DNA of 64,000 nt from Schmidtea polychroa (Eukaryota). Positions 8,101-60,300 of this stretch are shown piece by piece. Positions within the stretch are counted from its first letter, which is position 1. Every line of letters starts with the position of its first letter. Under the pieces are notes generated by a model. It made no database searches. It had not been told where the DNA came from and saw only the letters and a program-made list of their open reading frames with translations. A program made the translations under genes and the position numbers. The DNA lies in assembly GCA_044892525.1 (NCBI GenBank), contig CM097887.1, positions 121,870,397 through 121,934,396 of the forward strand. Reading direction: 5' to 3'.

Positions 8101-10051
8101 TTAATTATAATTAAGTATAATTAATTAAACATTTTCAAAAAATTATTAAAACACCCAATTTAATTTTAATCATCAATCGATAAATTTTTTAAATTTTAAA
8201 ACTACGGAATTTAATATATCAATTTAATCATTCATCACTTTTTAAAACAACAACAACATGCGAGCAATTTAACATTCAAACAATTTTAACCCTTTCAATA
8301 CGATTTTTTTATTTTAATAATTCATGTAATATTTATAGCACACGTGTCTACTGTTTGTTAGCAACATCTAAACTGACAAAATTTTATAGAAAAGAAAAAA
8401 AGCAGACAGCAAACAGCAACAAAGCAAACACGTTTAGACTTGTTTACGAGCCTATGACCGTACAGTACTAAAATAGACTATAAAATTCTCTGGGACAATA
8501 TGTCACTACAGTATTGAAAGGTTTAAGGCTTGTTTGATTTTTAAATTTTATTAAAAAGCTTTTAGTAATTATTGAGAACATGTAATTTGTGAAGCTTTGC
8601 TGATAATATCAGTGGATCAGAAAATTAATTTCAGAAAGCTGCGAACACTTGTGTTTTGAATGTTTTTAAATAGATTGGATCTTAAATTGAGTATGTGATT
8701 TGTTGTCGAAGTTTTCAAATGAATAGAACTGTTAAATTTATGTTTCAAAGTCTTTGTAAATTATCGATTGATGATTAAAATTATTTTGGGCGTGAATTAA
8801 ATAATATTTTAGAAACGATTTAATAATTTTCAGAAAATAATTTAAAATATTTAATAATGATAATTTTATAAATTCATTAATTAATCTATAATATCGATTA
8901 TTTTTTTCTATCCTATCTGATGATAGCAGCGATGCTGTCGAAATATATCGAAAAACGGATGTTTGATAATAAATGTTTAATTAATTTAAATTTATCTATA
9001 GTTTCGATGAAAGAATGCATAACGAAATATTTTAGGTATAGCATGGTGTGATTTTTGGATATTTACTGATGTTATGAGTTGCTCAGCATCCATCTTCCAT
9101 TTGGTCACAATAGCTCTAGATCGGTACTGGACCGTCACCAGAATCGAGTATAAACACAATCGCACAATGTCACAATTGATTTTCACAATTCTTTCCATCT
9201 GGATGATTTCTCTTATGATTGCAGTTCCTTCTAGATTTCATTTTCACAGACTAGAAAACCAAATGTTCCAGGAAGTCGTAATAAAAGGACGATGTTTAAT
9301 CAACAGCGGTTATTTCTATACTTTGTTATCAACTATGATTGCATTCTACGCTCCAATGATTTTCATGATGGTAATCTATTGGAAAATATATCAGATAGCT
9401 AAACGGCAAATCAGACGGAAACGGAAGTTCAACTATGAAGTTACTTTCGACTCAAAATACAAATCAATCTGCAGATATTTTCACTGCTGTCAGAGGACAA
9501 CCGAGTCAGAATTCTCTACAACTGGAGACCAATACCTTATCAATAGCAGTGTAAAAAGTAAATACACTTGCAGCATGATGGAGAACACTGTCAGGGATAT
9601 GAAATATGCTGATAACATATCTGTCAATTCTATAAATTCCGAAATCAAATACCAACTGAATATCAACGATGTTCATATTGCAAGGATGAGTAGCCTGTCA
9701 TCTTTGAGAACGTTGAAAGTTTCAGTCATGCCTAACAACTTAACGAAAACGATTGAAGAGCAAAGGCACAAAATCGAGGTGAAACGCGAAAGAAAGGCCA
9801 TAATCACAGTCGGCGTAATTACTTGTTGTTTTATTCTCTGTTGGATGCCGTTTTTTACGTTGACGTTAGTCTTACCATTTTGTGGCAATTATTGTATTGT
9901 TCATCCGATTATTTCTTCATTTTTACTTTGGCTTGGTTATTTGAATTGTCTTCTTAATCCTTTCATTTATACAATATTTTCTCAAGAATTTAGATGTGCT
10001 TTTAAAAACATTTTGACTGGTCATTATTGGAAGAGATGTATTGATAGATAA
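5188..10051 (+). CDS. Biogenic amine GPCR, 5-HT1-like serotonin receptor (exons 5188-5364, 7482-7590, 9036-10051)
   Basis: TM1 GNILVILAV; the TM2 exon found by hand (NLSNYLILSMAITDLIVAIFVM...DRWFLG); TM3 aspartate in FTDVMSCSASIFHL; DRY; CWMPFF; WLGYLNCLLNPFIY. Splice sites are canonical and phases (0, 1) match. Subtype inferred from motif similarity only. Confidence 0.88.
5446..6100 (+). mobile_element. Possible decayed Tc1/mariner-like remnant in receptor intron 1
   Basis: TA-cgtggtgcactcaataaatacccg resembles a mariner-type TIR, and FGDEKFGRP resembles the HTH-linker GRP motif. No matching second TIR was found. Confidence 0.25.
6115..6560. mobile_element. Non-autonomous hAT element (MITE), copy 1
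   Basis: Imperfect TIRs taggcttaccaact / agttggcaacccta; 8-bp flanks gttgtatg / gttgtagg (7 of 8 match, an hAT-type TSD length); homologous copy at 48364-48733. Confidence 0.75.
8500..8975 (+). mobile_element. Penelope-like element 3' remnant (GIY-YIG tail plus pseudo-LTR-like end) in receptor intron 2
   Basis: About 8530-8675 aligns by eye to about 16890-17035 (e.g. gaaaattaat...acttgtgttttga.tgtttttaaata) and is followed by the same hammerhead-like motif. Confidence 0.6.
8917..8949 (+). ncRNA. Hammerhead-ribozyme-like core (probably decayed), Penelope-associated
   Basis: CTGATGA-T-AGCAGC-gat-GCTGTC-GAAA-TATAT-C: intact CUGAUGA and GAAA boxes, a stem II hairpin, a palindromic AUAUAU stem III and an AUC cleavage triplet. 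Stem I is poor. Confidence 0.4.
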
Positions 10052-21737: not shown

Positions 21738-22583
21738 GGGATTGCCTCTGACTGGCATTTATTCGGTTTCTTTTTCTATCGCGTCTGTGTGCGCGGTCTG
21801 GTTAGACCGAATATTGTTGGTGTGGATTGATATTGTAGGTAATTGTTAATTGTGTTTTTTTTGTGAATTGATTGTTATATTGATATTGTAGAAATTATAG
21901 AATTTGGTTTTTTGTTTGAAATGTGTAAATGTTCGAAAGTGGAGTTTTGGAATCAAAATTTGTAAATTCCTGTTTTTAAAAATGGCTTCAGGTGTGAAAT
22001 GTGATCCTTCAGTTGAAGAAGAAGGATTTGATTACAAATTTATTAAAGCTTATGATGTTCCAAGCCAAGATCTTATTTCTTATTTCGATGAAACCAGTGA
22101 ATTCATTGAAAATGGCAGAAAATTTGGTGGAATATCAAGAAGTGGAATTATTTTGACGGCTTATTTAATGAAACATTTTAAAGTTGGTCCAAACGATGCG
22201 ATTGAGACAATTAAGGAAAAGTCAGTTATATGTCCAAATGATGGATTCAGGAAACAATTAAAGATATATTTCAACATGAATTGCAGTGATGAAATCAACA
22301 AATGCGCAAATACAGTTTCTCAAGCTCAATTTAAGTTATCAGCATCTTCAAAAGATTTAGTTCAATTCAAATTTAGAAATTGTCGATTTTTATTATTCGA
22401 CAATTCAAGTGTTGTTGAGCACAGTAAAATGAAAGCTTCGAAAGCAATAAATGAAAGCACAATTTGCAATGAGGAAATACTTATCGAAGCTCTTCCTTGG
22501 ATTGATAGCAGCAATGCAGACGGGGAAATGAAAATGACAGTGTTAAAGAATAAAATTTTAATGACTTATTTGGATCTTATTCA
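21738..22583 (+). repeat. 5' LTR (about 865 bp; start hidden in a gap)
   Basis: Matches 26141-26988 apart from a 21-bp indel, a 1-nt T-run difference and at least three substitutions; ends in CA just before the PBS; AATAAA near its 3' end. Confidence 0.88.
21982..22530 (+). pseudogene. DUSP12/YVH1-like dual-specificity phosphatase fragment inside the 5' LTR, catalytic HC motif missing
   Basis: [35 protein letters not shown], then remnants of the C-terminal Zn domain (NCRFLLF...[14 protein letters not shown]). The VLVHC segment before GxSRS is absent. No introns. Confidence 0.7.
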
Positions 22584-22601
22584 TGGTAGCAGAGCGTGGT
22601 T
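22584..22601 (+). promoter_or_regulatory. Primer-binding site complementary to initiator tRNA-Met
   Basis: TGGTAGCAGAGCGTGGTT directly after the LTR-terminal CA; complementary to an animal-type tRNAiMet 3' end (...AACCACGCUCUGCUACCA). Confidence 0.85.
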
Positions 22602-22797
22602 CCGGCTAGCCAGCCGGAACAAGGTATTATTTATATTTTTTAAGAATGATATTTGTATTGTATTATATACATGTAATAGGTATCGTATGTTTATTATATT
22701 ATATGTAGATTGGCTGTATTATATTTTTATTATATTTGTTATTTTTGAAACATTTCCCCTAGGGCCTGCCCTCCCTAACCCCATTAGAGGTGGATTG

Positions 22798-23251
22798 GCG
22801 CGGGTATTTGTCAAAACATTAATAGGGAAGACAATTACTCTCGAAGTTGAATCTAGTGACACGATAGGAAATGTAAAAGCGAAAATACAAGATAAAGAAG
22901 GTAGTCCACCTGACCAGCAACGATTAATTTGCGCGGGAAAACAATTAGAAGATGGGCGAACATTATCTGATTATAATATTCAAAAGGAGTCTACTTTGCG
23001 TTTAGTTTTGCGATCGAGGGGTGTAATGCAAATATTCGTGAAGACATTGACAGGAAAAACAATAACTTTGGAAGTAGAATCAAGTGATACTATTGAAAAT
23101 GAAGGCTAAAATTCAAGAAAAAGAAGGGATACCCCCAGGGCGACAAAGACTTAATTTTGCCGGGAAAGTATTAAAAGATGGCCTAACGTTATTAGATTAT
23201 AACGTTAGGAAAGAAGCCACGGTACATCTGGTTTTGGGTCTGGCAGGGGGA
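22798..23251 (+). pseudogene. Two tandem divergent ubiquitin units (22798-23025; 23026-23251 with a 2-nt deletion) fused to the Gag N-terminus
   Basis: [33 protein letters not shown]...[30 protein letters not shown], then [25 protein letters not shown] / [13 protein letters not shown]...HLVLGLAGG. Unit 2 is 226 nt, i.e. 228 minus 2. Confidence 0.92.
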
Positions 23252-25178
23252 AGTCCAGTATCAGATGCGGAGTTCGAGGCAGGTTACAAGAGACGAACCG
23301 GGTGGAAGATTTCGTTAGGGCGTCTACGTAACCGGGCCTTAGGAGATGGATCGGACCCGGGGGAAGATCAAAGGAGAATGGAGGCATACGAAGATAAGTA
23401 TGAGGAAGTGATCAACGAATTGGAGGAGCTGAGGAATAATGCTCGGGAGTTAGGGCGGGAGAAAGAAGAAAAGGAAATTGAGGCAGATCTGAAACGATTA
23501 GAAGCGGATTTCAGCAGAATCGGTGATCTGGTCCTCACGCAGAAGGAAGAGAGTTTTAGAGTGGAGTCGCGGAAGGGCACAGAAAAATCATTTAGGAGCG
23601 AAGAGCCCAATGAGAAACAGAAGTGCATAATGGGTTTGAAACCCTTGCAGTTGCCGGTATTTAATGGGAAGGTAATGGAATATCCTGGATGGAGGGCAAT
23701 TGTGAGAGCCTGCATCGAGGACACGGATGAGCCGAGTGAAAGAAAGTACTTGTACCTGAGACAGTACTTGGAAGGGAAGCCGCTGCAATTAATTGCCTAT
23801 ATTGGATATGGCTCGCAGGCTTTCGAGGCGGCGATGAAATTACTCGATGAAAGGTATGGGGGGACCAGAAAGATCCTATTCCATGATGCTGGATGCGGTG
23901 CAGAGGTTCTTCCCAGTGAGGCTCAACGTCTTGGAGGACCTAGAGCGGTTTGAAGAGCTGCTAGGAAACCTCATCCTAAATTTCAAGGATCAGAAGAGGG
24001 AAGGCGAGTTGAACAACGGAATGTTGTATCACCAACTGCTGAAGAAGCTTCCAGAGACCATGCTGATTCAGTGGTCACGCCATTGTGATTCGGGGAGAGA
24101 GGGAAATGTGCAAACGCTAGCCGAGTGGATCAAAACGGAAGCTAATAGGCATCGGCAAGCAATGAGCATTCTGTTTGGAGAAGGGCGGGCAAAGGGTAGA
24201 ACTGTCGCCCCAACAACTAACTTTGGAAATGCGAAGAAGAGCACGAATTTTACGGATAGTAGGCGCAAGATAGAGGTTAGCAGTGCTCGAAAAAAGGAAC
24301 CAATTTGTGTGAAATGTGGTTCAGAACATTATTTAAATCAATGCTCAGAGTTCCTAAAGCTGACTGTTAAGGAACGAAATGAGTTTGTGACCAAGAAGCG
24401 GCTTTGTTACAATTGTCTTACAACAGCTCACATGGTTAGAGAATGCGAAAAACCGAGCTTTTGTAAGGACAGAGATTGTACTCGAAAGCATCACAATTTG
24501 CTCCATGGCTCAGAGAACAAAGTTGATGGAGATCAAGAGCCGAGCAATGAGAACACATCAATGATGACGGTTCAAGATACACAGAGGAAGAAGATGTATG
24601 TTCCTTTACGAACGATTACAGCAAAGTTGATTAATAAAGGAAAGGAGGTCAAGATCAACGCATTGCTAGACGACGCAAGCAATGTTAGCTATATTAGCGA
24701 TTGGGCGGCGCAAGAACTGGGGTTGGGAGGACAGTGGCAAAGCACTCCAGTTGGCGTGATTGGTGGACAATCACAAATGTTGGAAACGAAGCCGGTGACG
24801 GTATTATTGGCAAGCAACAATAACAATTTAAAGGTAAATTTGAACGTCCTGGTGGTAAAAAAGGTCACTGGAGACCTGGGAATGTGTAACTGGAGGAAGT
24901 TATCGGCGAAATGGAAGCATCTGCGATATATAAACTTCCCGGTTATGAATACAAGGACGCAGATTGATGTATTGATTGGTTCTGATTACCCATATCTACA
25001 TCGATCTATTCGCGAAGTAACAGGAGCAAAGCATGAACCAATTGCAAGGTTGACGCCCCTCGGATGGACATGTCTTGGTAGGATTGCAAGGAATCAAGTT
25101 CCAAGATGTTCGCATTTGGCTCAGAGTTATTTTGCGGTAACGGAAATGTTAAAACGCCGGAGAAATGATTATTCATGA
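23252..25178 (+). pseudogene. Bel/Pao gag-protease region (one +1 frameshift in a G-run near 23860; truncated before RT)
   Basis: [11 protein letters not shown]...YPGW (DUF1759-like); CVKCGSEHYLNQC, CYNCLTTAHMVREC, CKDRDCTRKHHNLLH; protease ALLDDASNVSYI. The two ORFs join if one G is removed from tatgggggg. Confidence 0.88.
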
Positions 25179-26079
25179 TGTAGATAATTCTGAAGAAATG
25201 GATTATATTAAAGAATGGGATGAAAATGATGAAACACATGAAAACAAAAATGCTAGCGAAGATGGAGATAGTGAAAGCAATGAATGTGGGAATTTACAAT
25301 CTAACGATATTATAAATCAAGATGAAATAGAGCAAAATCGAGTCAATGAGAACGAGAATCAGTATTCTGAATTTGTAAAAAATAATACTGAACTATTAGA
25401 CAACGATTTTGATAAAGGAGACCAAGTTACAGCAGATGAATTAGAAAATATTGTCAAAAGTCACAATCAAGAAGAAAATTTTGAAAGTAAATATGATGAA
25501 ACGGAAGTAGATGTGTCAGACAAGAATGAAAATTATAATAGTCATGTAGGCACAGAGGTTGTCGACATTAATGTTATCGAAAGACCGAATTCTTTGGTAG
25601 AAGATAATTTTCAAAACATGGAAGACTTAGTTAATGTTCAAGCGGATTTTGCTTCCTCAGAAAATCATTTAGAAACTGATCGAATTATGCCAGATTCTGA
25701 GACCAATGACAGTGATCTTAGAGTCGATATTGTTAAAGATCATACGTCCGACACAGCTAAAGATTCTGAACAAAATACATTCACTCAACCAACGTCTGCT
25801 TTAGATGATATCATTGAAGACTATTCACCTGGTTCCCCTTCATTAAATGAAATGCAACAGGGAAAAGTGGGGGCTATTGAGTTGGCGAAACATGCAGGAA
25901 GGATAATGGAGATATTGCAGCGAAACAGAATGAAAAGTGGCAGGGGCTTGGCCGAGTATGGCGATGGTGGGAGGAGAATCCACCATGATGTATCCAGAAA
26001 GGTGCGTGGTGCGGCGGCCTATACCATAGCAAGATGGGTGTGTTGGAGAGAGGCAAAAGGAAAGGTTCCCCTGAAGTAA
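25165..26079 (+). CDS. Acidic (D/E/N-rich) ORF of unknown origin occupying the pol position; the last ~70 codons are element-like GC-rich sequence
   Basis: 304-aa ORF; AT-rich acidic block at 25165 to about 25860, with an abrupt compositional switch from the GC-richer Pao sequence on both sides. Confidence 0.5.
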   Translation: MIIHDVDNSEEMDYIKEWDENDETHENKNASEDGDSESNECGNLQSNDIINQDEIEQNRVNENENQYSEFVKNNTELLDNDFDKGDQVTADELENIVKSHNQEENFESKYDETEVDVSDKNENYNSHVGTEVVDINVIERPNSLVEDNFQNMEDLVNVQADFASSENHLETDRIMPDSETNDSDLRVDIVKDHTSDTAKDSEQNTFTQPTSALDDIIEDYSPGSPSLNEMQQGKVGAIELAKHAGRIMEILQRNRMKSGRGLAEYGDGGRRIHHDVSRKVRGAAAYTIARWVCWREAKGKVPLK

Positions 26080-26121
26080 TTGGGTGGTTGATCCGCTAGA
26101 AGGGATCAAGGAGGGGGGAAA

Positions 26122-26989
26122 TGTTTCGACCAGTCAGAGGGGGATTGCCTCTGACTGGCATTTATTCGGTTTCTTTTTCTATCGCGTCTGTGTGCGCGGT
26201 CTGGTTAGACCGAATATTGTTGGTGTGCGCACACAGACGCGAGCAATGGATTGATATTGTAGGTAATTGTTAATTGTGTTTTTTTTTGTGAATTGATTGT
26301 TATATTGATATTGTAGAAATTCTAGAATTTGGTTTTTTGTTTGAAATGTGTAAATGTTCGAAAGTGGAGTTTTGGAATCAAAATTTGTAAATTCCTGTTT
26401 TTAAAAATGGCTTCAGGTGTGAAATGTGATCCTTCAGTTGAAGAAGAAGGATTTGATTACAAATTTATTAAAGCTTATGATGTTCCAAGCCAAGATCTTA
26501 TTTCTTATTTCGATGAAACCAGTGAATTCATTGAAAATGGCAGAAAATTTGGTGGAATATCAAGAAGTGGAATTATTTTGACGGCTTATTTAATGAAACA
26601 TTTTAAAGTTGGTCCAAACGATGCGATTGAGACAATTAAGGAAAAGTTAGTTATATGTCCAAATGATGGATTCAGGAAACAATTAAAGATATATTTCAAC
26701 ATGAATTGCAGTGATGAAATCAACAAATGCGCAAATACAGTTTCTCAAGCTCAATTTAAGTTATCAGCATCTTCAAAAGATTTAGTTCAATTCAAATTTA
26801 GAAATTGTCAATTTTTATTATTCGACAATTCAAGTGTTGTTGAGCACAGTAAAATGAAAGCTTCGAAAGCAATAAATGAAAGCACAATTTGCAATGAGGA
26901 AATACTTATCGAAGCTCTTCCTTGGATTGATAGCAGCAATGCAGACGGGGAAATGAAAATGACAGTGTTAAAGAATAAAATTTTAATGA
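26122..26989 (+). repeat. 3' LTR with the second DUSP12-like copy (ATG 26407); end hidden in a gap
   Basis: Begins TGTTTCG after the PPT; contains the hairpin ccagtcagagg/cctctgactgg; near-identical to the 5' LTR. Confidence 0.88.
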
Positions 26990-31139: not shown

Positions 31140-32213
31140 TTATTTTTTCTCAATAGTATCAGCACTGGAATCGGAGAATAGGTTAAGGAAATCAATTGGA
31201 ATCGGAAAAATTATTGTGGAGTTCTTTTCGTCTGAAATGCTTCGTAATGTTTGGAGATATCTTAGCTGTAGGGCAATGGGACAATCACTTATTTGAATTG
31301 CAGCAGCTTTAAGGGCGACAGAAGCTCGTTTCTCTCCTTCAGCAGCTATTACTTTTGCCTTTGCTTCTCGGGCAGCTTCTGCTTCAGCAGCCATGGCTCG
31401 TTGGAGTTGGATTGGTAATCTCACATCCTTTATGTCTACCCTTTCAACTTTTACACCCCAGGTTTCAGTCGCTGTATCTAAACACCCTTGCATGTTTGAA
31501 GCAATTTGTTCTCGTTCTGCTAATAATTGATATAAATCAACTGTTCCTAACACATTTCTCAATGTTGTTTGAGCTAAGAGTCTTGTTGATCTATTGGCAT
31601 CTTCGACATTAACAACAGACATAATGGGATTGAATATTCTGTAATAAACAACAGCGTCAACAGCAACAGTTACGGAGTCTTTTGTTAAAACTTCTTGAGT
31701 CGGTACATTGAATGTGAATGTTCTTAAATCTACGAGTTTCATTGAGTCTAAGCAAGGTAAAACAAATACAAGACCTGGGCCTTTTGGCTGTTTTGATATG
31801 AGCCTACCTAATCGAAAAATTACAGCCCTTTCATATTGGGCGACAACTTTCAAGCAAGCAAACAATGAAAACGGAAACGTTATTGCTGCTGTAAGATACG
31901 ACAAAGCTTGAATGGCCGATTCGCATCCTGACATGGCCGCGTTGTATCCCGCTTCTCCAGTTTGATTTTCAACGTTTTCAAACACCAAAGAAAAACCTCG
32001 ATTGGTCGTTGGCTGCGAAGGCGCTCCGCTATTAGCTGAACTGGATGTGTTTTTGTTGATCGAACTGGAAACTTTTGATTGTTTCGTCGATTTTCCATTG
32101 TTGTTGAAATCTATTTTACTGTTTGTTCCATGCTCCAGCATCGGTTGGCTATCGCTGAGATTTGTGTCTAAGTTTTCGTCGGCCATCTCCTTAGAAAATG
32201 ACACCGTGTGCAT
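31140..32213 (-). CDS. Stomatin/band-7 (SPFH) family protein, mec-2/stomatin-like, intronless
   Basis: Hydrophobic hairpin TFPFSLFACLKVV; QYERAVIFRLGRL; GPGLVFVLPC; DLRT; VLTKDSVTVAVDAVVYYRI; LLAQTTLRNVLG; RAMAAEAEAAREAKAKVIAAEGE; ALQLRYLQTL. Confidence 0.95.
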   Translation of the reverse strand: MHTVSFSKEMADENLDTNLSDSQPMLEHGTNSKIDFNNNGKSTKQSKVSSSINKNTSSSANSGAPSQPTTNRGFSLVFENVENQTGEAGYNAAMSGCESAIQALSYLTAAITFPFSLFACLKVVAQYERAVIFRLGRLISKQPKGPGLVFVLPCLDSMKLVDLRTFTFNVPTQEVLTKDSVTVAVDAVVYYRIFNPIMSVVNVEDANRSTRLLAQTTLRNVLGTVDLYQLLAEREQIASNMQGCLDTATETWGVKVERVDIKDVRLPIQLQRAMAAEAEAAREAKAKVIAAEGEKRASVALKAAAIQISDCPIALQLRYLQTLRSISDEKNSTIIFPIPIDFLNLFSDSSADTIEKK

Positions 32214-32855
32214 TAGATTTTAGCGCTCAGTGAATAAAACCCATCCGATTTTCGTATGTCACTGAAATTTCAAACAAAACAGAGAGATTTTGTTTTAATT
32301 GATGATAATCAGAAAATTTGTGCACTTTTGAAAAATTTTATTGTAATCAATAAGCAAGTCGAATAAGAAGCGATATCTTTTAATTTCACAGTGGAGTAAT
32401 GGGAGAGAGAGCAATTTATTTAGTCGACTAATGAAGTAGAGAAATGCAGATAGGCAAAAACGGTTACTGTATTACTGGGTTTCATTGTCTTTAGAGAGCA
32501 GAAAAGAATTTCTCCTAGTTTTGTCACTGCAATATTACTTTTTTCTGTTTCATCCAGTAGGGCTAGTGAAAATTTGCACCAATACAAATACTGGTATTTG
32601 ACGATAACAATATTTTGTGTATCTAAATTTCTAAACTTTTGCCATTTCAATGGTAAAATAAATATTTTTTTGAAAAACTTTTTTGTTCGCTTTATTGTTT
32701 CAAAAAAAATCTTGTTTTTTGTTTGTTTGAATTAATTTTAAATTTATTTTAACTGGTGAAAAATTTGATTTAGTAATTAAATTTTAAAATTTTCAAATAA
32801 ACGTTTTTAATTTAAATAATAAAAAATAATTTATTATTATAAGAATTTCTTTCGA

Positions 32856-40600: not shown

Positions 40601-40887
40601 AGTATTTGAATTTTTATGACTATTATGTATTAATATTAAAATGTAAAATATTATAGTAATGCTTATTTTCTGTTTAACTGTTTTATAGTTTCTAATGTAA
40701 ATATATTGTGTCAATAAATTGCATTGAGGGCACCGAAGCAATTTTTGCATCATGACTGCTAGGACCGGCGCTGGTTATAGCTAATATTAAATATTATCCT
40801 TGCAATGGTCATTTCACTATTAATTTAAAAATATTTTAACCATTATTCAATAAATTTGGTCGATCTGCAATCGTCATGTAATAAAAA

Positions 40888-42369
40888 ATGTCTCAGTTTG
40901 AAGTGAAGCCATACATTTGGAAACCGAAAGATTCTGAGTTAACCGTGACATTAATTAATGATAAATCTAATCCTTTTGGAATTTTTGAAAAGAATCATTT
41001 AGATCGTCCCCCTTCTCAATTAGACAATGAGTCGAATGATTTAATTAGCGACATTCAGTTTGATGAAACATTTAATATCCTCACTTTTGACTGCAATAAT
41101 TTAGAGGTTGAAAGTTGCGTTGACCTACAAACAGAATTCAACGAATGCAGCTCCAAAACTAAACAAGAAAATACAAATTTTATTCGGAATGAAAATGAAA
41201 AATCCTTTTCAATCAGTGATAAGCATTCGACAGAATTCAGGGAGTTTCTCCTCCCGACTGAGGATGTGTCGGTTGAACCGAATATATTAAAGTACGCTCA
41301 TAATATTAGTCAGTCCTATGGCTATGAAGCCAATAATCTTAAAGTTAATGTAACTGATGAAATACTTTTTAATGAATTATTAAAACGGTTTTCTAAACGA
41401 ATATCTAAAGTAGCGATTAAAACGGAAGTAAAAGGTTTCATCAAGCATTTTGCTAAAGGTCTCATCAAAAAATCTACTTTGATAAACCTAAGACTAAGTT
41501 CACTCAAAACCCCTGTAGTAGGATTTCCGGAAAATACTAATAAGACCATTTCATCCGAAGATGTCACATTTCAGTCTTACATAAAATCAAACTATGATGC
41601 TAAAATCATTCCAACCAACAATGAGAATGATGAAATTTTTGTGGTCCAATCAATATTCCATGAAGAACCAAATGAAAAAATTGATTCCGCCTCTCGGGAG
41701 TCGACAAATTTTCGAATTAGGTCTTTGGAATATGAAACAAAAATATTCACAAATCTTCATTGTCCTTCGCCTTTCGATGTTGTGCCGTTTCCCAGTATGC
41801 AGGAATGTGTTTTCGATAATTTGGAAAACGAGTCTCTTTGTTCTAAGACCTCTCCAAAACGTCGGGCAGTAGCGACAAGTCCAATTCAATTTTCTGAATT
41901 CGTAGATGAACCCAACCATAAATTGTTAAATCTTCTCAATTGCATGGCTAAACAAAACCTGAAAAATACTGATCACGTTAGTTTAAATGAAAAACACAAA
42001 AAAGTAAAATCCACCACCTCTTCTCTTTTCAATCGGATTTTTAAAAGAAATAAATCAAAAGAATCCAATTTTGGAAATAGTCCCGAATATTTTTCTTCAT
42101 TATCCAAAGCCAGCTCAATACTATCTTTAGACAAACATCAGAAATTTCCCCATTCAAACAATCGAAAGGAATGTCTTCCGCAGGATAAAGTCAAAACGAA
42201 AAACGATTGGCTGGAGGTTGATCAGTTCTCTGTTCATTGTGAGCCGTCAGAAAGCGCAAATAAAGCTCTGTCCTTTCATGAGAACTCAAAGTTTTCAAGC
42301 TCCAATTTGTCTAATATTTCCTATCCGGATTTATCATCTGGTAACAACGCGGTTTTTATCATAGATTGA
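40888..42369 (+). CDS. Uncharacterised 493-aa S/N/E/K-rich protein (possibly one large exon)
   Basis: Uninterrupted ATG-started 1.48-kb ORF in AT-rich DNA; no motif recognised. Confidence 0.6.
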   Translation: MSQFEVKPYIWKPKDSELTVTLINDKSNPFGIFEKNHLDRPPSQLDNESNDLISDIQFDETFNILTFDCNNLEVESCVDLQTEFNECSSKTKQENTNFIRNENEKSFSISDKHSTEFREFLLPTEDVSVEPNILKYAHNISQSYGYEANNLKVNVTDEILFNELLKRFSKRISKVAIKTEVKGFIKHFAKGLIKKSTLINLRLSSLKTPVVGFPENTNKTISSEDVTFQSYIKSNYDAKIIPTNNENDEIFVVQSIFHEEPNEKIDSASRESTNFRIRSLEYETKIFTNLHCPSPFDVVPFPSMQECVFDNLENESLCSKTSPKRRAVATSPIQFSEFVDEPNHKLLNLLNCMAKQNLKNTDHVSLNEKHKKVKSTTSSLFNRIFKRNKSKESNFGNSPEYFSSLSKASSILSLDKHQKFPHSNNRKECLPQDKVKTKNDWLEVDQFSVHCEPSESANKALSFHENSKFSSSNLSNISYPDLSSGNNAVFIID

Positions 42370-49040: not shown

Positions 49041-50903
49041 TCATAATTTCTCAATGACGACAGCCCAATTGCCCGAATCGTACCAGGAATCAACGAGCTT
49101 GACACCGTCAACCGTTCCACAGAGATTCTCCAATTCATCTTGCTGAAACAAATGATAATATCTGATGAGAACTTGTTCAGTCTGGCCGGGATTGTCTGTT
49201 GATTTATTGCACCAGGGCACCAGCATATCATTGGCTGTGAATTCGGTCCTATTCAGGTGGACAGGCAACGGCAAATCTTCATTACTGCCGGCTTCCAATA
49301 CCGCCTTAGGATCAATCGATTTCTTGTTCAGATATTTTGACTTGATGCCGTCCTTGTGTTGCTGTTGCGCCCAAACATAAATCAATCCCGTGCCAGATTT
49401 CCTAAGCAATTTCACCATTTTCTCCACAGCTTCCTTGCGTCGATCGGCAGTGCTGAGATGATGCAGAACAGCAATCGAAATGAAATAATCACAACAGCCG
49501 GCTCGATATGGCAATTGTCGGCAATTCGATTGCAACGTATCGATCCTGTGGGAATCAGCGGCGATCCTGCAAAGATTCCCACTCGAATCCGATCCCAATA
49601 GGAATCCTCGTGCGAGAATTGCCGGGAAATATTTCCCATTGCCACAGCCGATATCAGCACCGATGCTGCCGATTGGCTGGTTGGTGATGAATTGGCGCAC
49701 TTTTGGCCACATCGAGTGCCGGGTGGAACTGAAATGCTCAGCGATTTTCTCATAAACCTGATGGACGAATTGCTGTTCAAGTTGACTCGGTGGTAAATTC
49801 CCGTTGGAATTCCTGTTGATATCGCAATTTTCCGGCCATTGGCAAGTGCAACCTCGAGTCGGTTTGATCTGTCGGAATGTCAGCGAAATTCTCAAATCTC
49901 TTTGGCGTTTTTCAAAATGATTTTCATTGGGGAAATAAATCAAATCGGATTTCCTTGCTGCGATTCCATGCTTCCATAAAAATCGGGATTCTCCGCTCAT
50001 TATGCAAATGGATCTGGATTTGATATCGACGTTGGTGTGTTGATTCGATTTGGAATTAATCCATTCCATTATTATGTCGGAATTGAGACTGAATGAAATG
50101 ATTTCATCGGTAAACACAGAATGAGTATCGGTATGAGATGGGATACCGTCACCGGGTTGATAAATATTTACGGTTAATTGATTAAATGATTGATAAGATT
50201 TATTTCTGAAATTCGACAATCTTTGTAATAAATCTAAACAATTACTAGGAATCGGCTTATCTGAAAGTGGCTTGGAAAAATCTACTAAATTGTTTTCGTA
50301 ATTGAATTCATATCCAAAATGAATAACAGTTCTCTGTTTTAAACTGCTGTTTTTGTTGGGTTCATTGATCTCTGTGAAATATTCAACGAGACTTATTTCC
50401 TCTTCCTCTAAAACAAAATTCATTTTTAACAAAAAATAATTGAATATATATATATATATACTTGAAATAAAATCTTCAACTATTATTAGCCCATCCGGTT
50501 TAAAAGAATTGAATTGCATTATGTCTGGAGTTAAATTTGATGGAAAATGTTTAACGTAAATACAAAAGGCATTAACAGAAGGTCTCGATTTAAAATCAGG
50601 AGTTGGAATATAAAAAGATTGTAGATTATTTAAAATTCTCTCACTCGCTTCACAATCCGTAGAGATAATAAAAGAGAAATTTTGTTGTGGAGGAGTAATA
50701 ATTTCTTTAATAAAATTCTTAAATTTTGATAAACTTAATTCTAACTCTTGTCTTTTTACATCATTGGCCAAGCCGCCATTAGCAATAATAAGTAATTGAG
50801 TAGGTTCTTCAGAAAATAATATACCAAATTTTTCAGTTAATCTCAATTTAATTTTTTCAATTTTCTTAATATATTTTTTTAATTGACATTTAGAAAAAGA
50901 CAT
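49041..50903 (-). CDS. ALKBH8: Alkylated DNA repair protein alkB homolog 8 (tRNA methyltransferase/hydroxylase); likely ATG at 50903 and a probable 54-nt intron at 50408-50461
   Basis: RRM region (IIANGGL); AlkB domain (TVNIYQPGDGIPSHTD, WKHGI, RISLTFR); Cys cluster CTCQWPENCD; SAM methyltransferase (HFSSTRH, DIGCGNGKY, IAVLHH). Confidence 0.95.
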   Translation of the reverse strand: MSFSKCQLKKYIKKIEKIKLRLTEKFGILFSEEPTQLLIIANGGLANDVKRQELELSLSKFKNFIKEIITPPQQNFSFIISTDCEASERILNNLQSFYIPTPDFKSRPSVNAFCIYVKHFPSNLTPDIMQFNSFKPDGLIIVEDFISSIYIYIFNYFLLKMNFVLEEEEISLVEYFTEINEPNKNSSLKQRTVIHFGYEFNYENNLVDFSKPLSDKPIPSNCLDLLQRLSNFRNKSYQSFNQLTVNIYQPGDGIPSHTDTHSVFTDEIISFSLNSDIIMEWINSKSNQHTNVDIKSRSICIMSGESRFLWKHGIAARKSDLIYFPNENHFEKRQRDLRISLTFRQIKPTRGCTCQWPENCDINRNSNGNLPPSQLEQQFVHQVYEKIAEHFSSTRHSMWPKVRQFITNQPIGSIGADIGCGNGKYFPAILARGFLLGSDSSGNLCRIAADSHRIDTLQSNCRQLPYRAGCCDYFISIAVLHHLSTADRRKEAVEKMVKLLRKSGTGLIYVWAQQQHKDGIKSKYLNKKSIDPKAVLEAGSNEDLPLPVHLNRTEFTANDMLVPWCNKSTDNPGQTEQVLIRYYHLFQQDELENLCGTVDGVKLVDSWYDSGNWAVVIEKL

Positions 50904-51116
50904 GCTTGAAAGATTTCTATATTTGAAATTAATATATTGTAAATAGGAATATTTAAACAAACGTCAAGTTCATTAGCAAATTAAAATCACTCATTTAAAT
51001 AATTTGATTCACAAAATAGAATATATTTTAATTTTCAAATGTGAAACATAATTTTGATTAAAAAAATAACTCGTTTTTCAATTTATTTTAAAATTTTAAC
51101 TATTTAATATCTAAAT

Positions 51117-53400
51117 CAGTGGTGTCCAACCGAAATTGGTTACTGGGCCAAAATAAAAAATAAAAATATAATGTGGGCCGCACGTATTTATTTATTATAA
51201 AAAATTTATACAAACTAAATTATATTTTACATATACATACATATTACTTAATGTGAAACTTGTTTTTCAATTTTTTCTGATAATTTTTTTATGTCCACAG
51301 GTATTTTCGAAGTTGAACATCGTAATTGGTCTTTTAAATTTTCATCAGTTAATCTATTACGACTTTTACATTTAACAATCTTTAATTTTGAAAAAAAAGA
51401 TTCGCAAAGATACGTGGTCCCCATTGCAGCTGTAACGCTTATCGCTAGTTTTCTTAGATTAGGAAATTTATCATTGCATTGTATTTTTTTATAAAACTGA
51501 ACTTTATCATTGGCTTCAAACATATATTTTAATTCAGAAGATGACTGGAGATCTATTAACTCCATTTGCAAATTTGTTGGAGCTGATTCCACAACAATGT
51601 CAAATGGACATAGGAAAATATTAAATATATTCTCATATTTCTTAAAATATGAAAATCTCTCCTGAAATTCTTGTAGTAAATTGGTAATTTCTTGTCCATA
51701 TTTAGAAAAATCTTTTTTGTCACAATTAAATATATGTAATAATGGAAAGTGGATAGAATTTTTTGATTTTAATTGACTTTCATAAAGTTTCAGTTTTGTT
51801 ATGAATGCTTTTATATTTCCATAACAGTCTGTGATTAACTTGTTTTCACCTTGAAGCTGCCTATTTAGTTCGTTTAATTTCATAGTAATATCTGTAAGGA
51901 AACATAAATCCAAAAGCCACTGCTCATCATATAATTCAGGGACATTTTGGTCATTTTCATTCATAAAAATTCCAATCTCTTCTCTCAAATTCCAAAATCT
52001 TTCTAAACATTTCCCACGACTTAACCAGCGAATTTTCGCATAAAAAAGCAAATCACTGTACTCAGATTCTAGTTCTTGAAGGTAATCTTGAAACTGACGA
52101 TGTTTTAAGGAATTATTTTTTATTGCTTTAACTGTTTTAATAACGACTGACATCACATGGTTCATATCAAATACTTGCGCACATAAATTCTCAAGGTGTA
52201 AAAAACAGTGACAAATAAAAAGGTCAGGAGATAATGAAGCTTTTTCCATGGCATTTCTATAATCAAGAATTAATTTTACGGCTCCAATATTTTTACCGAT
52301 CATTGAGGCTGCACCATCTCTGGTGATTCCAATTAGGTTTGCTAAATTAAGACCATGATCATGTGTGCATTTTACGACAGCTTCTTGTATATTTTTTCCG
52401 GTAGTTGTGCCTTTCAAACTCATAACATCCAGAAGTTCTTCAGTTACACTCATTTCACTATAAAAACCTCGAATAAAAATAGCAAGTTGTGCAGTGTCTT
52501 TAATATCTGTTGTCTCATCCAAAGCCAGTGAGAAATAAACAAACTCTTTAGAAACCATGTCCAGCGTAGAACAAATATCAGTTGAAATGTTATCAATTCT
52601 TCGTGATACAGTTTGATGTGATAGACTAATTTGACCAAAAATCTTAATTTTTTCTGGAATAATTTCTTCAACTGCAGCAATAAGGCATTCTTTGATGTAT
52701 TGACCATCTGAAAAGGGCTTCATTTTTTTCCCAATAATGTGTGATATTCGCATGCTGGCATTAACGATGGCATTAGATTGAATTGTTTGTTTATGAAATA
52801 TATTTCGTTCTGCATTCAGATTTGCTTTAAGTGTATCTAATTTCACTTTTCGTTCGTCTTTAGTATATTTTTTATAATCATCATGTTTTTGTTCAAAATG
52901 TCGTCTCAAATTATATGATTTTAATATTGAGGTAGATTGACGACAAATTAAACATATAGCGTTTTCCTTCACCTGCGTGTAAAAATATAAATTTTCCCAT
53001 TCAATTTGAAATTGTCTGTTTTCATCTTCAAATTTTCTTTTTTTATTCTTATGTTAGATGATGAGGGTAGGCCCATCACTACATTTACCCTAGACAAATA
53101 CTACAGGACAGGGCCCAAAAAATATAGAGTAAATGTGTACGCCGAAGAGCGCAGATAGATAAATATTCCAACAAACAACCCAATTTTAAGCAAATCAATT
53201 CAACCCAAAGACAACCCAGCAATCTGAAAACTGACTAAATCGTCGAGCAAACTATGCATATTCTATCTTATCAACAATTGTGTAAATATAATTGACTATT
53301 CTATCTTATTAACAATTGTGACAATCCATGTATATTTTATCTTATTTTCGGTCTGAATACTTATATGTATATTTTATCTTATTTTCCGTTTGAATATTTA
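51117..53400 (-). mobile_element. hAT (Buster/SPIN/GTF2IRD2-like) DNA transposon; only one terminus found
   Basis: Terminus CAGTGGTGTCCAACC at 51117, preceded by atcTAaat (central TA, as Buster elements prefer); full transposase ORF; the other TIR is not seen before the gypsy LTR. Confidence 0.8.
51248..53076 (-). CDS. hAT transposase with BED-like Zn finger; intact apart from a 1-nt frameshift in an A7 run near the N-terminus
   Basis: KRKFEDENRQFQIEW...CLIC...NLRRH..H; catalytic FSLALDETTD, TRDGAASM, CFLH, RWLSRG, TYLCESFFS. The upstream ATG (about 53076) joins this frame if the A-run is A8. Confidence 0.85.
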
Positions 53401-54359: not shown

Positions 54360-57300
54360 ATGAATAATAATAATAATAATTACATAAAAATTTTACCAGT
54401 AGAACCATATAGAGGAGAGCCTGAAAAGTTCGACGATTTTTTCACTGAGATCGCTCAGTATGCAGAAGCTTGCGGGTGGACACCTGATGAGTTAAAAATG
54501 AGAATACCACTATATTTAAAAGGTTATGCGTTACAGGCATACAATAACTTAGAATGTAAAGGAAATAATTTTGAGCAACTCGTAAGATATCTGAGAGCAT
54601 AAATAGTAATCGATAGCGATTTACAAAAGATAAACGTTCAAAAATTTAGAAACAGATATCAGGGTACTAGAGAATCAGTTGGTGAATATGTATATACAAT
54701 TACGGAGTTAGCGAAAAAAGCATTTGGTGCAGGGGAGCACACAGCAAAATTAATTGAGGATCAGTTTTGGAATGGTATACAAAAATATTTATATAAAGCA
54801 CTAATTATGGTAGAATATGGTAATTTAAACGAATTAGTTCATAAAGCTAAGCGTATAGAAGCAATACAACGAGATAGATTTAGTTCACATGTAGATGCAA
54901 TGGAAATCCAAAAACCCATAGAGGTAAAATCTGAGTTGGGTAAGTCAGATGACAACATCCCCTGGGAGGAGATGAAACAACTATATTTGAACTTTGTAAA
55001 AAATAGACGAAGGGTAAGCCCGAGTCCAGATAGAAGTCAATCGCCTGAAAACAGGAGAAGGTTTGACAATGTGAGAAATAGAAATTTTGAGAATAGAAAC
55101 AATAGAAATACTTTCGATAGAGACAATCGTTATGAATATAATAGAAATAATTATACGAGAGATAATAGAGTCGATTTTAGTAGAAATAATTTGAGAAATA
55201 ATAAATATGATAGAAATAATAGACACGATAATAGAGATAATACAAATGAATTGAGACGTAGACAGACAAGTCCATATAGACAGAATTCATACAGAGAAAG
55301 GCGAGGGAGCCCTTATAATAATGATGGTAGAGATAAAGTAAATTTTAATGGACAAATCAAATGTTATAACTGCCAGAAATATGGTCACTTAGCTAAAGTA
55401 TGCAATAATGCGCGAAGCGAATCGCCTAATAGAGTGAGATTTAAAAATGAGCCTGAGATAAAACAGATTAATAGTGCTGAGTTGATATCAGCTAATGATG
55501 AAATAAACAGTTTGAGGGAGGAATTAAAAGAATTTAAAACTCAATATGGGAGACTTATTGAGAGGAAGTTAGAAATGTCATTAAATGAGTTTCAGTGTTT
55601 TACCAATGATGTAGATATAGATAATGATGAGTTTCGTGAAGCAAGAGAAGCGGATGAGAAATTTCTTGCAGAAACAAATAGATGTAAAGAGTTAAAAGAA
55701 GAATTGAAAGAGACATTAGAAAAATGGCCTTATGATGATAATGAGACATTGCGTATAATAAATAGAGTTCAAGTCGAAGGAATTGACTTAGAATATTTGA
55801 GAAATTTGATACCACTAATGGTAAAGAGACAAAATATGACAAGAGTATTTGAATTAGAAATAGAATTGAAAGAAATGATAAAATGCTATGGTGAATTTGT
55901 GAGAAAAAATCAGAAATTACATGAGTCATTAAATATAACTATTGAGGCAAAGGACCTTTCGAGATTACTTATGCGTAGTACAGGGGTACATGTTTGCACA
56001 AAAGTGAATAAAGTGAAACAGATGGCTAGAGCCAATTGGCCCGAGAAATTGGGAGATAATGATAAAGTAAAACTGTATTTTAACGGTGTAGAAATGATGA
56101 ATAATGAATATATAATTGACTATGGGGTAAATGTTATTGATAACAATATTATTTCAGCCGTAATAGAAAGGCAAGAAAGTAAACAAGTGGATACACCAAC
56201 TCCATCAGTAGAATTGAGTATAAACGATGAAAATGACTACGACAAATTATTTAGATTGTGGGATGCTTCTTCAGGAGGGGCAATGAGGTCACCAACAGCT
56301 AGCGAGGAAATCTTGAAACCTATCGATACTAAATATGATAATTTACATGAGACAATAGAAAGAATTGCGAAACAAGCAAATATGCAGGATGCAGATACGA
56401 TGAGACGAGGTAGGGGAAGGCCTCGAAAATCGGAAATAGCCGAAAAGTCAGATGACAGAAAGGCAGCAGAGCGTTTAAGAGATATTGCAAATAATATGAG
56501 ACAGGAAGTTCCAAAAAATCAGGATAATGACAAAGACATAAAAATGATAATGGAGTTAGTTAAAGCAATGAATATGAGACGATTTCCGGAAGCAAAACCA
56601 TCAGCACTAATAGAAAATATAGTTAAAAAGATTAAATTAATGGAAAAAGAGATTAGAGAATTGAGTGCAGAGGAAGCAAATGAAGAGACAGTGTTAAAGA
56701 TACTATTTACAACAGGAGTTAATCGAGATAAAGTGATTACGGCAATGGCATATTTAATAGCAAGATACAAGAAACTTTTGCGATTGAATCCAAAGAATCA
56801 GATAGAAAATATTGCTAAAATGATATATAATAAATTAAAAATAGATGCTATGCCATGGATAAAATTAAAAGGAGGATGGAAAATACTGTATGATGAGAGC
56901 CTAATCGAAGGTGTTAAGGAAAGCGTAGGAGACAATATTAATGTAGAAATAGATGATGCGGAGGAGACAGTAAAAAATCTAGTAAATAAAACAACTACGA
57001 GACCGAGTCAAAAAGAAAGAAAGTCGACAATGTCAATAGTAATTATAGTAATAACGTTATTGTTAGATCTGATAAAAGGAAATAATGCGATCATAGCGTA
57101 TGACTGTCAGAATCCTAAGTGGGGACAGAAATATTCATTATTAGATGTAGAGAATTGCCCAGAGGCTAATCCAACAAAACTAATTGTTGCAGATCCAAAG
57201 ATTTTTCACATATATCAAGAGTCTGACTTCATTCACACTGAGGCAGGAGAGTGTATCGTTAAATATTCAGAGGAAAGTTTTGTATGTAATAAAATAGCGA

Positions 57301-60300
57301 GAACAATATTAACTCCAACATGGGCACCAGAAGCGATAATAATAGCACCAATCGAATGTGAAAATGCATTTAAGACAAAAAAGATAAAAACGCCAGATGG
57401 ATTTGAGTTAAATGCTCAGGTAGGAGCACGAGTAAGGCAATTAGTAAATGTCGTTGGATGGTCATCAACAGGAGGATATTGTGAAGAAGGAACGTATAAA
57501 ATATGGGGACATGTAGCAGACAATATTGTAGTAAGACGACAATATTATATTGAATTAAGGAAATTCAAGGCGTCATTTGATAGTTCATCAAAGAAAATGA
57601 TGACACATAAGTTCTGCACATTAGATGAGACAAGCTGTGATACAGGCGAGTCAATGATCATATACAAAGTAAATAAATATGAATGCCATCTAACTAAACT
57701 AAAGACATTGAAATTCAGAACAATACGAGGTAAACAGTTTACGGATATGGAATCCAAAAACATTAAAGATCAAAAACGACGAGCAACGATAATTCAAGAG
57801 AGAGATACACCAACGATATATATGTCAGATTCTGAAACAGAAGCGATGAGATTCGTGGGGAAAGGTGAAAGTATCAAATGCGGAAAAGCAGTTATACAAA
57901 CAAATTATGAAGGAATTTATATCAGCGGAAGTGAAATTAAAGAGGCAAAATCGAAAATAGATAAATTCGATGTCAAGCTAGCGTCATATTTTAATAATAA
58001 AATCGACTACTTTTATCATCATCAGTTAGTACAATTGGACAAAGTATATCAAGCAACTATTGCAAACGATTGTAAACTTAACAGAGAAATTTTAAGAACA
58101 AAGATGGCGGTTGCAGTCACAAACCCAGATTTGATGGCACCAATTTTATTTGCAGAAAAAGGGACATTTGCAAGAGTCGTCGGTGAAGTGATACAAACAT
58201 TTCAGTGCAAACCGGTTAGCGTATCTTTAGCAACGAATAATAAGTGCACAAACGAACTGCCAGTAGTGTATAAAGGAGAAACTGTGTACCTCCAACCAAT
58301 AACAAGGATATTAACAGATAAAGACTATGTTCCGAGAAAAATTGATAAATGTACTAATCTATTGGATCCATTATACAAAATAAATGATGATATGTGGATT
58401 ACAATGTCAGATAGAAAAGAAGCGACTAAACCACAAAAACTAGAACTAACTGAACTTGAGAAAAAGTTAGAATTTCAGGAAGTCAACGAAATGGATAACA
58501 ATGGGATGTATACGAGAGAGGCGATAGAGAGCGCCAGAAAACATATGTTATTTCCTCATGAAAAAGAAAAAGTTCTTTCTATCATGGTAAACAAAATCAT
58601 CGAAAATAGTTATGGAGGGAATTACAACTTTGATGTATTATTATCAAAAGAGCACTTCAAGAAAGTTGTGTATAGAGTATTATACAGCATATGGGGATAT
58701 TTTGCGATTCTCGGAAATACGTTTTCCACTATATTGGGTATATATTATACAGTAGCACTATTGAAAATGATTTGCTCATCACTAGTTTCGTTAAGACAAC
58801 TGAGACAAGTTTTTGGTAATTCATATAAAATGATAGCATGTTTATGTCCATTCATAGCCAAATATTTGATCACTGCGAGGCACGATAAGGAAATCAAACG
58901 GATGAAAAGTCGAAGGGAAGAGGGTGAAATGATGATCACCAATGAGAAAGAGGACGATACAAACAGATCAGAAAATACTGAGCAACCACAGATTGGGTTA
59001 TATGATAATCAAAGAGAACAATTGACAGAATTGAGAAATAATATTGAAATTAGAATCCCAGGTGAAAATGGTAATTGTCATTGTGTTCCAAGGAAAACTT
59101 ATGGATGTTACGGGTTAGAACTTGACGATATATTAGAAGGGTTAAATGAAGCAAGGCCTAAATTACAAATAGTGATAAATGATACGATAATAAAGGCATT
59201 ATGTGACACAGGAGCAGCAGCTTCTATGATTCGTGAAGATCAGTTAACCGGAAACCAAAAGAAAAATATCGTGAGCACAAGAGATAGAGTAATTTCATTA
59301 TCATCACATTACATACCATTAAAAGGAGATATCGAATTAACAGTCCACTTTTCGGATCAAGTGGTTGAACATGTCTTCAAGGTAGTAGCAGAATGTAAAT
59401 GCGTATGTGTCCTTGGGATGGACATACTCAAAAAGTTAAAAAACTGTGTAATCGATTTAACGGATAGTACAGTCAAACGGAAGGCAATATATCAAGACGC
59501 AAGATTTACTGAGGTAATTGCATTAGAGACATTTGAACTAGAGTATCAAAGTGATCATATAATTCCAGTAAAAGTTAATGTTAAAAGTGAGGACACTTTC
59601 ATTTTCGAGCCTGAAACGGCAATATCACGAGATCATAACGTAATGTTAACAGACGAGTGTGTAATTCCAAATAATGGGATAATTCCAATAAGAATCGCGA
59701 ATTACGAAAGAAATAAAGTAAAAATTCATAAAGGTACAAAATTGGGAAAGTTGTTCAAAGGTGAATTAGAGCAAACATTTGAAGTATGTGAGATGTCGAT
59801 GACGAAGGATGTCAGTGAAAGAATGGTCGAACAGAGTAGAGCGAATAATATCAAATTTTATGATAAAATTAAAATAAATAATAATTATCTAAATGAAACA
59901 CAACAACTACAACTACAAATATTACTTGACGAATACAGTGATGTTTTTGCAAAACACGAATTTGATTTAGGAGATACTGACATTATCAAACATGTAATCG
60001 ATACAGGGAATGCTAGACCAATAAAACAGAGACCCTATAGTGTACCATATAAACTGAGGGAGGAAATAAAACGACAAATTAAAGAATTAAAAGAGACAGT
60101 TAGAAAGAAAGACGGGGAAATTCGAATGTGCATTGATTATCGTAAATTAAATGATGTAACAGTAAAAGACTCATACCCATTCCCAAAAGCACAAGAACAA
60201 TATGATAAACTTAGAGATACTAAATATTTCACAGTAATAGATGCAAATAAAGGCTACATGCAAATTCAAATGGAAGAGGGGGATGCGGAAAAGACAGCTT

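Follow-up and report, generated by a model that had tools for sequence, protein, structure and literature searches.

In a 64,000-nucleotide stretch of the Schmidtea polychroa genome (contig CM097887.1, positions 121,870,397 to 121,934,396, forward strand; hereafter the window), positions 21738 to 26989 hold a Bel/Pao retrotransposon whose long terminal repeats (LTRs) contain pieces of host genes. We consider it probable that this is a young, non-autonomous element whose LTRs carry a mosaic of host mRNA pieces, continuous in frame with ubiquitin, Gag and protease. On this view the cargo is a neutral passenger whose frame stays open for no other reason than that translation of Gag likely passes through it, and the ubiquitin adjacent to Gag would let host deubiquitinases free Gag. 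The first-pass annotation, made from the window sequence, had recognized a Bel/Pao element with a pseudophosphatase fragment in both LTRs; the open reading frame (ORF) joining cargo to Gag, the two ubiquitins, the MAP1B piece standing in place of pol and the non-autonomy were missing from that description.

Host-derived cargo within the LTRs

The direct repeats at 21738-22583 and 26122-26989 (both +) differ by three substitutions and by two indels, of 21 nt and 1 nt. These are the visible parts of the LTRs: the first bases of the 5′ LTR and the last bases of the 3′ LTR lie under N stretches, as do the outer ends and the target-site duplication of the window copy, and LTR ends and duplications were judged on family copies. 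The 5′ LTR, delimited by repeat comparison and family ends, finishes in TTCA directly before an 18-nt primer-binding site (22584-22601, +), and the 3′ LTR begins with TGT directly after a polypurine tract (26108-26121, +). The annotated reading of the repeats as true LTRs, with the expected motifs at both junctions and few differences between them, is borne out in each respect, and the assignment to Bel/Pao agrees with a Gag match to PF03564 (DUF1759). The primer-binding site, which lies in frame within the ORF, is the exact complement of the 3′ end plus CCA of a genomic tRNA-Met(CAT), which we take to be of the initiator type. The 3′-end pattern of this primer tRNA has 1227 matches genome-wide, and tRNA-Met(CAT) genes run in a long tandem array (repeat unit 454 bp) from G000:C1:79326093 onward (L168-L173); in the 64-kb window itself, ARAGORN found no tRNA.

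The cargo of the 5′ LTR opens with the start codon and first codons of cofilin (39 bp, 21982-22020, +; 97% over 37 nt to the host cofilin locus L138) and continues with a 508-bp fragment of DUSP12 (22021-22528, +), from which the N-terminus and the second half of the zinc domain are missing. The same cofilin-DUSP12 cargo is found at 26407-26953 in the 3′ LTR. In the host cofilin gene an intron separates the ATG from the next codon, whereas in the window LTR the ATG is joined straight to exon 2; a cofilin-cargo copy elsewhere (L142) is also devoid of cofilin intron 2. The spliced joint in the LTR shows capture from mRNA. As a separate observation, the genome contains 108 cofilin-domain matches, of which the examined loci L140, L142 and L146 are LTR cargo and one, L138, is a host gene; further matching loci include G000:C1:41188456-41189007 and C3:80899500-80906600 (L152).

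The DUSP12 fragment matches the Pfam domain DSPc (E 4e-13) and, in the PDB, DUSP10, DUSP12 and Yvh1, with the VLVHCxAG loop absent. Relative to the host gene it has suffered two in-frame deletions, one of 24 nt (8 codons) in the catalytic loop near 22128 and one of 51 nt (17 codons) near 22288. The annotation was correct that the catalytic VLVHC is deleted, and the second deletion adds to it; its intronless segment of about 550 bp does have DUSP homology and a DUSP12 parent, but DUSP12 accounts for only 508 bp, preceded by the 39 bp of cofilin. Five nucleotides are shared at the cofilin/DUSP12 joint and four at the 24-nt deletion, with none clear at the 51-nt deletion; such matches may or may not exceed chance.

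The DUSP12 parent is a complete, single-copy gene of 282 aa at G000:C2:123292853-123293698 (L097), with an intact active site and intact zinc motifs (CxxC, including CPKC; DSPc E 2e-29). Its DSPc domain is followed by a C-terminal zinc-binding domain, a layout that we take to be that of DUSP12/YVH1, and the name given to this gene rests on the layout plus the PDB matches to DUSP12 and Yvh1. A protein search with the host sequence returned 13 distant matches (28-36%), none of them named DUSP12, and the cargo peptide gave no match at E 0.001 in protein database searches. The annotation had expected a spliced parental locus; the parent exists, but its coding region has no intron, so that the intronless state of the cargo is uninformative on how DUSP12 was captured. 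Loose contig ends from four sequencing runs led to the two single-copy parents, DUSP12 and the MAP1B-like gene described below. Among the run contigs on the element, those of one run, presumed to be RNA, cover 30 of 30 bins and those of two cover mostly the host-derived parts, a coverage that cannot show expression.

The family is widespread. More than 100 dispersed LTRs, solo LTRs included, are spread over the four large contigs of the 781-Mb, AT-rich genome, and many of them form pairs separated by 3.8-4.5 kb. A DNA search with the DUSP piece gave 40 scored matches at 94-100% (of 275 candidates), and a protein search gave 226 matches from the 150 of 220 candidates scored, some copies being counted twice; exact matches to a 20-nt motif of the LTR hairpin number 490 in the genome, against 0 for the control. 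Identical 5-bp flanks are present in 14 of 20 two-LTR copies with both ends readable (29 two-LTR loci were examined) and in 9 of 10 solo LTRs. Many insertions lie within an ATT microsatellite, and identical flanks there are trivial; outside it, five two-LTR copies (L032, L035, L088, L089, L107) have identical flanks. Flanks made of (ATT)n/(AAT)n microsatellite were noted at L033, L034, L036, L037, L039, L040, L073, L079, L082 and L086. Insertion into such repeats may point to a target preference. The two LTRs of a pair are 1-16 substitutions apart, and the family is therefore young. Some copies have interiors of about 2.9 and 3.5 kb, and large in-frame interior deletions are common. Separately, L108, L150, L159 and L031 are tandem elements with a common LTR or with an extra upstream interior piece.

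These data also bear on whether the repeats of the window could be a collapsed or mis-joined tandem duplication. Both outer ends of the window copy abut N and some genome copies do lie in tandem or duplicated blocks; nevertheless, copies on four large contigs show TG..CA ends, primer site, polypurine tract and 5-bp target duplications, which rules out this explanation at the level of the family and makes it practically negligible for the window copy. The few LTR differences and the dispersed copies with target duplications agree with the annotated view that the element moved recently with its cargo already in place.

One reading frame and the selection acting on it

The LTR frame runs on through the primer site and a spacer into the ubiquitins, Gag and protease. 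The AT-rich spacer (22620-22797, +) is stop-free in this frame and begins with a splice-donor-like AAG/GT. It is followed by ubiquitin 1 (22798-23025, +; Pfam PF00240 and PDB ubiquitin), which ends in RSRGV in the window copy, and by ubiquitin 2 (23026-23251, +; Pfam), which ends in GLAGG adjoining Gag. The Bel/Pao Gag (DUF1759; 23252-24560, +) has three zinc knuckles, read from the translation; its PF03564 match is marginal in the window copy (E 1.5e-5, 25.5 bits against a cut-off of 25.4) and reaches 33.9 bits in the copy L073. An aspartic protease with an LDDAS motif at 24666 occupies 24561-25090 (+), with weak Pfam matches (PF13650, E 0.0014; PF05585, E 0.076). In place of pol there is a MAP1B/Futsch-like fragment of a giant acidic exon (25151-25852, +), 88% identical with gaps to the single-copy host parent L115 (PF25281, E 3e-6, below its cut-off). 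About 45 in-frame bases of this piece (25371-25415) are absent from both the host gene and the matching contigs. No Pfam match to reverse transcriptase, Peptidase_A17/RNase H or integrase was obtained in the interior of the window copy, which is a non-autonomous Bel/Pao derivative.

In the window copy the frame is broken near 23102 in ubiquitin 2, near 23858 in Gag and near 25151 at the MAP1B piece. In L073, a single uninterrupted frame of 1395 aa extends from the LTR to before the polypurine tract in the order DSPc-ubiquitin-ubiquitin-DUF1759-protease, and L031 has a frame of 1382 aa. The frame was followed in 59 elements, 47 of the window lineage and 12 of a pol-bearing partner family; L074-L077 and L081 were left out as having the same flanks as L073 and L080, and L041-L050, L091, L092 and L128 as solo, rearranged or without a usable primer site. 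Over the last 150 codons upstream of the primer site, 48 of the 59 elements are open in this frame, while the two other frames are open in 1 and 0; among loci picked by interior DNA alone, 13 of 20 are open in this frame. The distance from primer site to ubiquitin is in frame for eight of the nine lengths seen in at least two elements, compared with five of 12 singleton lengths. All seven multi-locus spacer clusters have 0 in-frame stops, versus 1-17 stops in the other frames. Finally, only 1 of 326 changes shared among copies creates a stop, as compared to 29 of 612 private changes (P 5e-5); with a second reference copy the figures are 2 of 298 and 27 of 587. Stop and indel counts were filtered, since the unfiltered tallies took in misaligned mosaic stretches (L078, L086, L089).

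Selection on the individual parts was estimated as the ratio of nonsynonymous to synonymous polymorphism (pN/pS), computed on changes common to at least two copies. The ratio is 0.21-0.27 for Gag plus protease (P at most about 1e-19) and 0.22-0.35 for ubiquitin 2; it amounts to 1.0-1.4 in ubiquitin 1, 0.66-0.91 in the MAP1B piece and 1.1-1.6 in DUSP12, the last resting on 28 changes only (23 nonsynonymous, 5 synonymous). The pattern is the same with either of two reference copies, whether or not transition weighting is applied. Purifying selection acts on Gag-protease and on the ubiquitin next to Gag, while the DUSP12 cargo is neutral and ubiquitin 1 is drifting; it follows that an element without pol needs its own Gag, protease and ubiquitin 2 and does not need the amino acids of its cargo. 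The split is clean, with Gag and one ubiquitin conserved and the cargo drifting in a frame that is kept, and it offers a natural test of two questions, whether a non-autonomous element has to supply Gag itself and whether ubiquitin can serve a retrotransposon as a processing adaptor.

The annotation had proposed that the LTR yields a dead DUSP12 decoy, or small RNAs acting on the host gene. DUSP12 is the commonest cargo in our sample, which was seeded with DUSP12; the motif-deleted form is present in young copies, and about 500 nt of 96%-identical sequence in more than 100 LTRs could seed small RNAs. Against this, DUSP12 codons evolve neutrally. Of the 26 DUSP12-bearing 5′ LTRs examined, 13 have the catalytic motif deleted, 10 retain it intact and 3 carry some other alteration of it. 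The first 35 of 133 domain positions are absent from most copies and a further 17-residue stretch from many, making a folded domain doubtful. Moreover, the cargo is interchangeable, unrelated pieces occurring on the same interior. A functional pseudophosphatase such as STYX combines a whole domain and purifying selection with a dead site; the LTR fragment is truncated, carries two deletions and has the neutral ratio given above. A decoy phosphatase thus finds no support, and the explanation as a whole, small RNAs included, appears very improbable. L098 and L099, among a few solo LTRs, retain nearly the whole DUSP domain, which fits a stepwise in-frame erosion.

Cargo exchange, a partner family and a possible cycle

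Sister copies whose gag sequences are about 95-98% alike bear other LTR cargo, namely cofilin, a proteasome subunit, a Ras family member (Rab), LIM and a TCP-1 chaperonin, and three copies (L086, L107, L108) have, between primer site and ubiquitin, a DEAD-box helicase piece, presumably eIF4A-like, inserted into the spacer without loss of frame. A gag tree of 45 copies is star-like with bootstrap unsettled and one probably mis-anchored sequence (L152); all that it shows is how nearly identical gag is in copies with different cargo. More than 100 near-identical pseudo-copies of DUSP12, cofilin and proteasome genes will confuse gene annotation, the design of RNA interference experiments and read mapping in this genome.

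A second, pol-bearing Bel/Pao family, also young, was examined at 12 of its 101 Peptidase_A17 matches. It has the same layout as the window lineage, including primer site, post-primer motif and hairpin, and a single frame of up to about 2200 aa beginning in the LTR; its one ubiquitin has no start Met and ends in LRLCGG in 11 of 12 copies. The interiors of the two families give no blastn match to each other and their proteins are 32-38% identical (38% for Gag-protease), yet one cargo is 96% identical between them (L090/L163 versus L124). This common cargo has no Pfam match (tested on L123) and its Atlas matches are below 0.9. Within the window element's own lineage, a search with pol yielded 33 matches, and the closest of the other copies is at 96%. 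The partner family is therefore the likely helper and would supply the missing pol functions. A pol-bearing relative with DUSP12 LTRs and an intact catalytic motif (L106 and L118, G000:C2:130127309-130141412) is broken and interrupted by a large insertion holding another long ORF.

The LTRs provide candidate signals for such a cycle. Two hairpins are predicted at the LTR start (26130-26242, +; fold z -5.8, 0 of 200 shuffles scoring as well); the second is also found in the partner family (97% over 77 nt to partner LTRs), and the 5′ LTR of the window copy is without part of its right arm. An AATAAA at 22549-22554 (+), 35 nt before the LTR end, is a likely poly(A) signal, and the motif is located 26-44 nt upstream of the LTR end in 58 of the 59 elements. 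With the poly(A) signal at this position, the cargo would sit in a long R region. Transcription would begin near the 5′ hairpins and end after the AATAAA; by analogy with the splice donor of the human immunodeficiency virus (HIV), the poly(A) signal of the 5′ LTR might be suppressed by the donor-like site past the primer site. Lying in R, the cargo would be copied first in reverse transcription, the reverse transcriptase could jump to co-packaged host mRNAs or partner RNAs while copying R, and the strand transfers would place the new cargo in both LTRs. Reverse transcriptase and integrase would act in trans, likely from the partner family. Translation from the LTR ATG would give a cargo-ubiquitin-Gag protein, from which cleavage behind Gly-Gly would release Gag. 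Since an RNA probably relies for its packaging on the Gag that it encodes, only in-frame products would spread well. These steps are compatible with the general strand-transfer and template-switch model of LTR elements (PMC5131818, PMC13317346; here and below, comparisons concern portions of the cited papers).

Several observations weigh against this reading. The transcript start, and the translation and cleavage of a cargo-ubiquitin-Gag protein, are inferred from sequence. A GG precedes Gag in 39 of 44 copies of the window lineage and in 11 of 12 partner copies, but five of the 44 are without it, and the residues before the GG are non-canonical: ubiquitin 2 ends in GLAGG and the partner's in RLCGG, the canonical end being RLRGG, and ordinary deubiquitinases may therefore cut poorly. 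The canonical end is carried by ubiquitin 1 in 26 of 43 copies, and this is the drifting unit. Broken frames have been transmitted, with a stop in both LTRs of L039 and a frameshift in both of L107, and three of six shared interior indels are frameshifts. Part of the 59-element set was chosen for long frames, and the copies are related and recombining, so that the counts are not independent events. The MAP1B piece, past the protease, is also open in most cases, although the translation of Gag by itself would not call for this. Lastly, ubiquitin 2 starts with its own ATG, and Gag could begin there.

This last point leads to an alternative in which Gag is made from a downstream start, either at the ATG with which ubiquitin 2 opens or on an RNA spliced at the donor-like site, and the upstream open frame is a by-product of the capture of coding pieces. 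AAG/GT directly past the primer site in 55 of 59 elements, the initial Met of ubiquitin 2 and the transposition of some copies with a broken LTR frame are in keeping with it. On the other hand, the partner ubiquitin has no start Met, several unrelated AT-rich versions of the spacer are stop-free in this one frame, and no joint from the donor-like site is found among the contig joints listed; we regard a downstream start as clearly improbable. An intron model built from the donor-like site was rejected: the nearest AG would not bring the frame into ubiquitin.

A different possibility is that the cargo acts as RNA, host-like and continuously translated RNA ends escaping small-RNA silencing or nonsense-mediated decay whatever protein they encode. 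It would account for a frame that may stay open to the polypurine tract, through a MAP1B piece unneeded by Gag, for the purging of stops among shared changes, and for a cargo that is often replaced and comes from housekeeping genes. The same list of cargo, however, would result from capture of abundant mRNAs without any benefit, and the large in-frame interior deletions also speak against it. We hold a role of the cargo as RNA to be unlikely, though less so than a downstream start of Gag, and prefer the neutral passenger translated together with Gag.

That preferred reading has a bolder extension, which we offer tentatively and with rather less confidence. The captured ubiquitin may have turned the Bel/Pao LTR into an open, translated slot, into which any in-frame scrap of host mRNA could be loaded, duplicated in both LTRs, traded between distant families and cut from Gag. 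Hundreds of LTRs, solo ones too, each with a start codon and a poly(A) signal, might then seed ready-to-express chimeric genes, in effect exon shuffling through the LTR.

Neighbouring frames and known systems

Elsewhere in the window, a frame of 2787 codons (54603-62963, +) has Bcl-2-like, viral fusion glycoprotein, protease, reverse transcriptase, RNase H and integrase matches; by these matches it is a putative Gypsy element of the Burro type, in which env stands between gag and pol (cf. PMC6431247). Further frames encode a rhodopsin-family G-protein-coupled receptor (9023-10048, +), a Band 7/SPFH protein (31143-32219, -), a 2OG-Fe(II) oxygenase plus methyltransferase (49044-50963, -) and a hAT transposase (51251-53053, -). 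A frame of 494 codons at 40885-42366 (+) has no Pfam match.

Some features of the element have counterparts in yeast and plants. In Ty1 only a few codons, and no host cargo, lie upstream of the primer site. Cassandra, a plant element, has one fixed non-coding 5S RNA in both LTRs, and the TR-GAG elements are plant non-autonomous elements with Gag but without reverse transcriptase and integrase; we know of no ubiquitin-Gag fusion in either. The window family resembles Cassandra in having host-derived sequence in both LTRs, unlike it in that the pieces are coding and exchangeable, and resembles TR-GAG in keeping Gag without reverse transcriptase and integrase (both are named in PMC13570524). It shares with Ty1 an initiator tRNA-Met primer-binding site within the Gag frame (PMC4974528), but places about 200 codons of host-derived mosaic before that site.

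The closest parallel for the capture itself is LTR-mediated retroposition by template switching (Tan et al., 2016, PMC5131818, where maize Bs1 is cited). As in the cases described there, partial, spliced chimeras of several host mRNAs are found in a still-moving non-autonomous LTR element, introns are lost in a captured piece (cofilin) and short sequences, perhaps by chance, are shared at some joints. In those cases the captured pieces replace part of internal ORFs, whereas here most of the cargo is within the LTRs, at both ends of the element, ahead of Gag in the same frame, and is exchanged from copy to copy; the MAP1B piece alone, between the LTRs, fits the published pattern. Ubiquitin finds its parallel in cytopathic pestiviruses, in which an inserted ubiquitin is a shown cellular cut-site in the polyprotein (PMC8310069). 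In both systems a captured host ubiquitin stands directly before a polyprotein member, in principle releasable by host hydrolases; in pestiviruses the cleavage is shown and concerns a non-structural protein, while here it would occur before Gag and at a non-canonical C-terminus. The planarian Burro/GYPSM1 giant elements likewise, and in what is probably the same group of animals, have host-like domains built into a retrotransposon polyprotein (PMC6431247), but they are Gypsy-like with the extra domains in a giant internal ORF, unlike the Bel/Pao elements described here with their neutral LTR mosaics.

The combination of in-LTR host cargo, ubiquitin and Gag in one frame was not found described in full-text literature searches, a scope beyond which supplements, Repbase and the 2018 planarian genome paper could hold one; the main text of PMC11410931 contains neither "Pao" nor "ubiquitin". 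Each part has a precedent, be it internal mRNA capture, a primer site in gag, host sequence in LTRs or ubiquitin as a cut-site, and it is their combination that appears to be new. LTRs are usually regarded as control units that do not code, and genes captured by an element as cargo of its interior; in this family, the LTR is a variable coding cassette.

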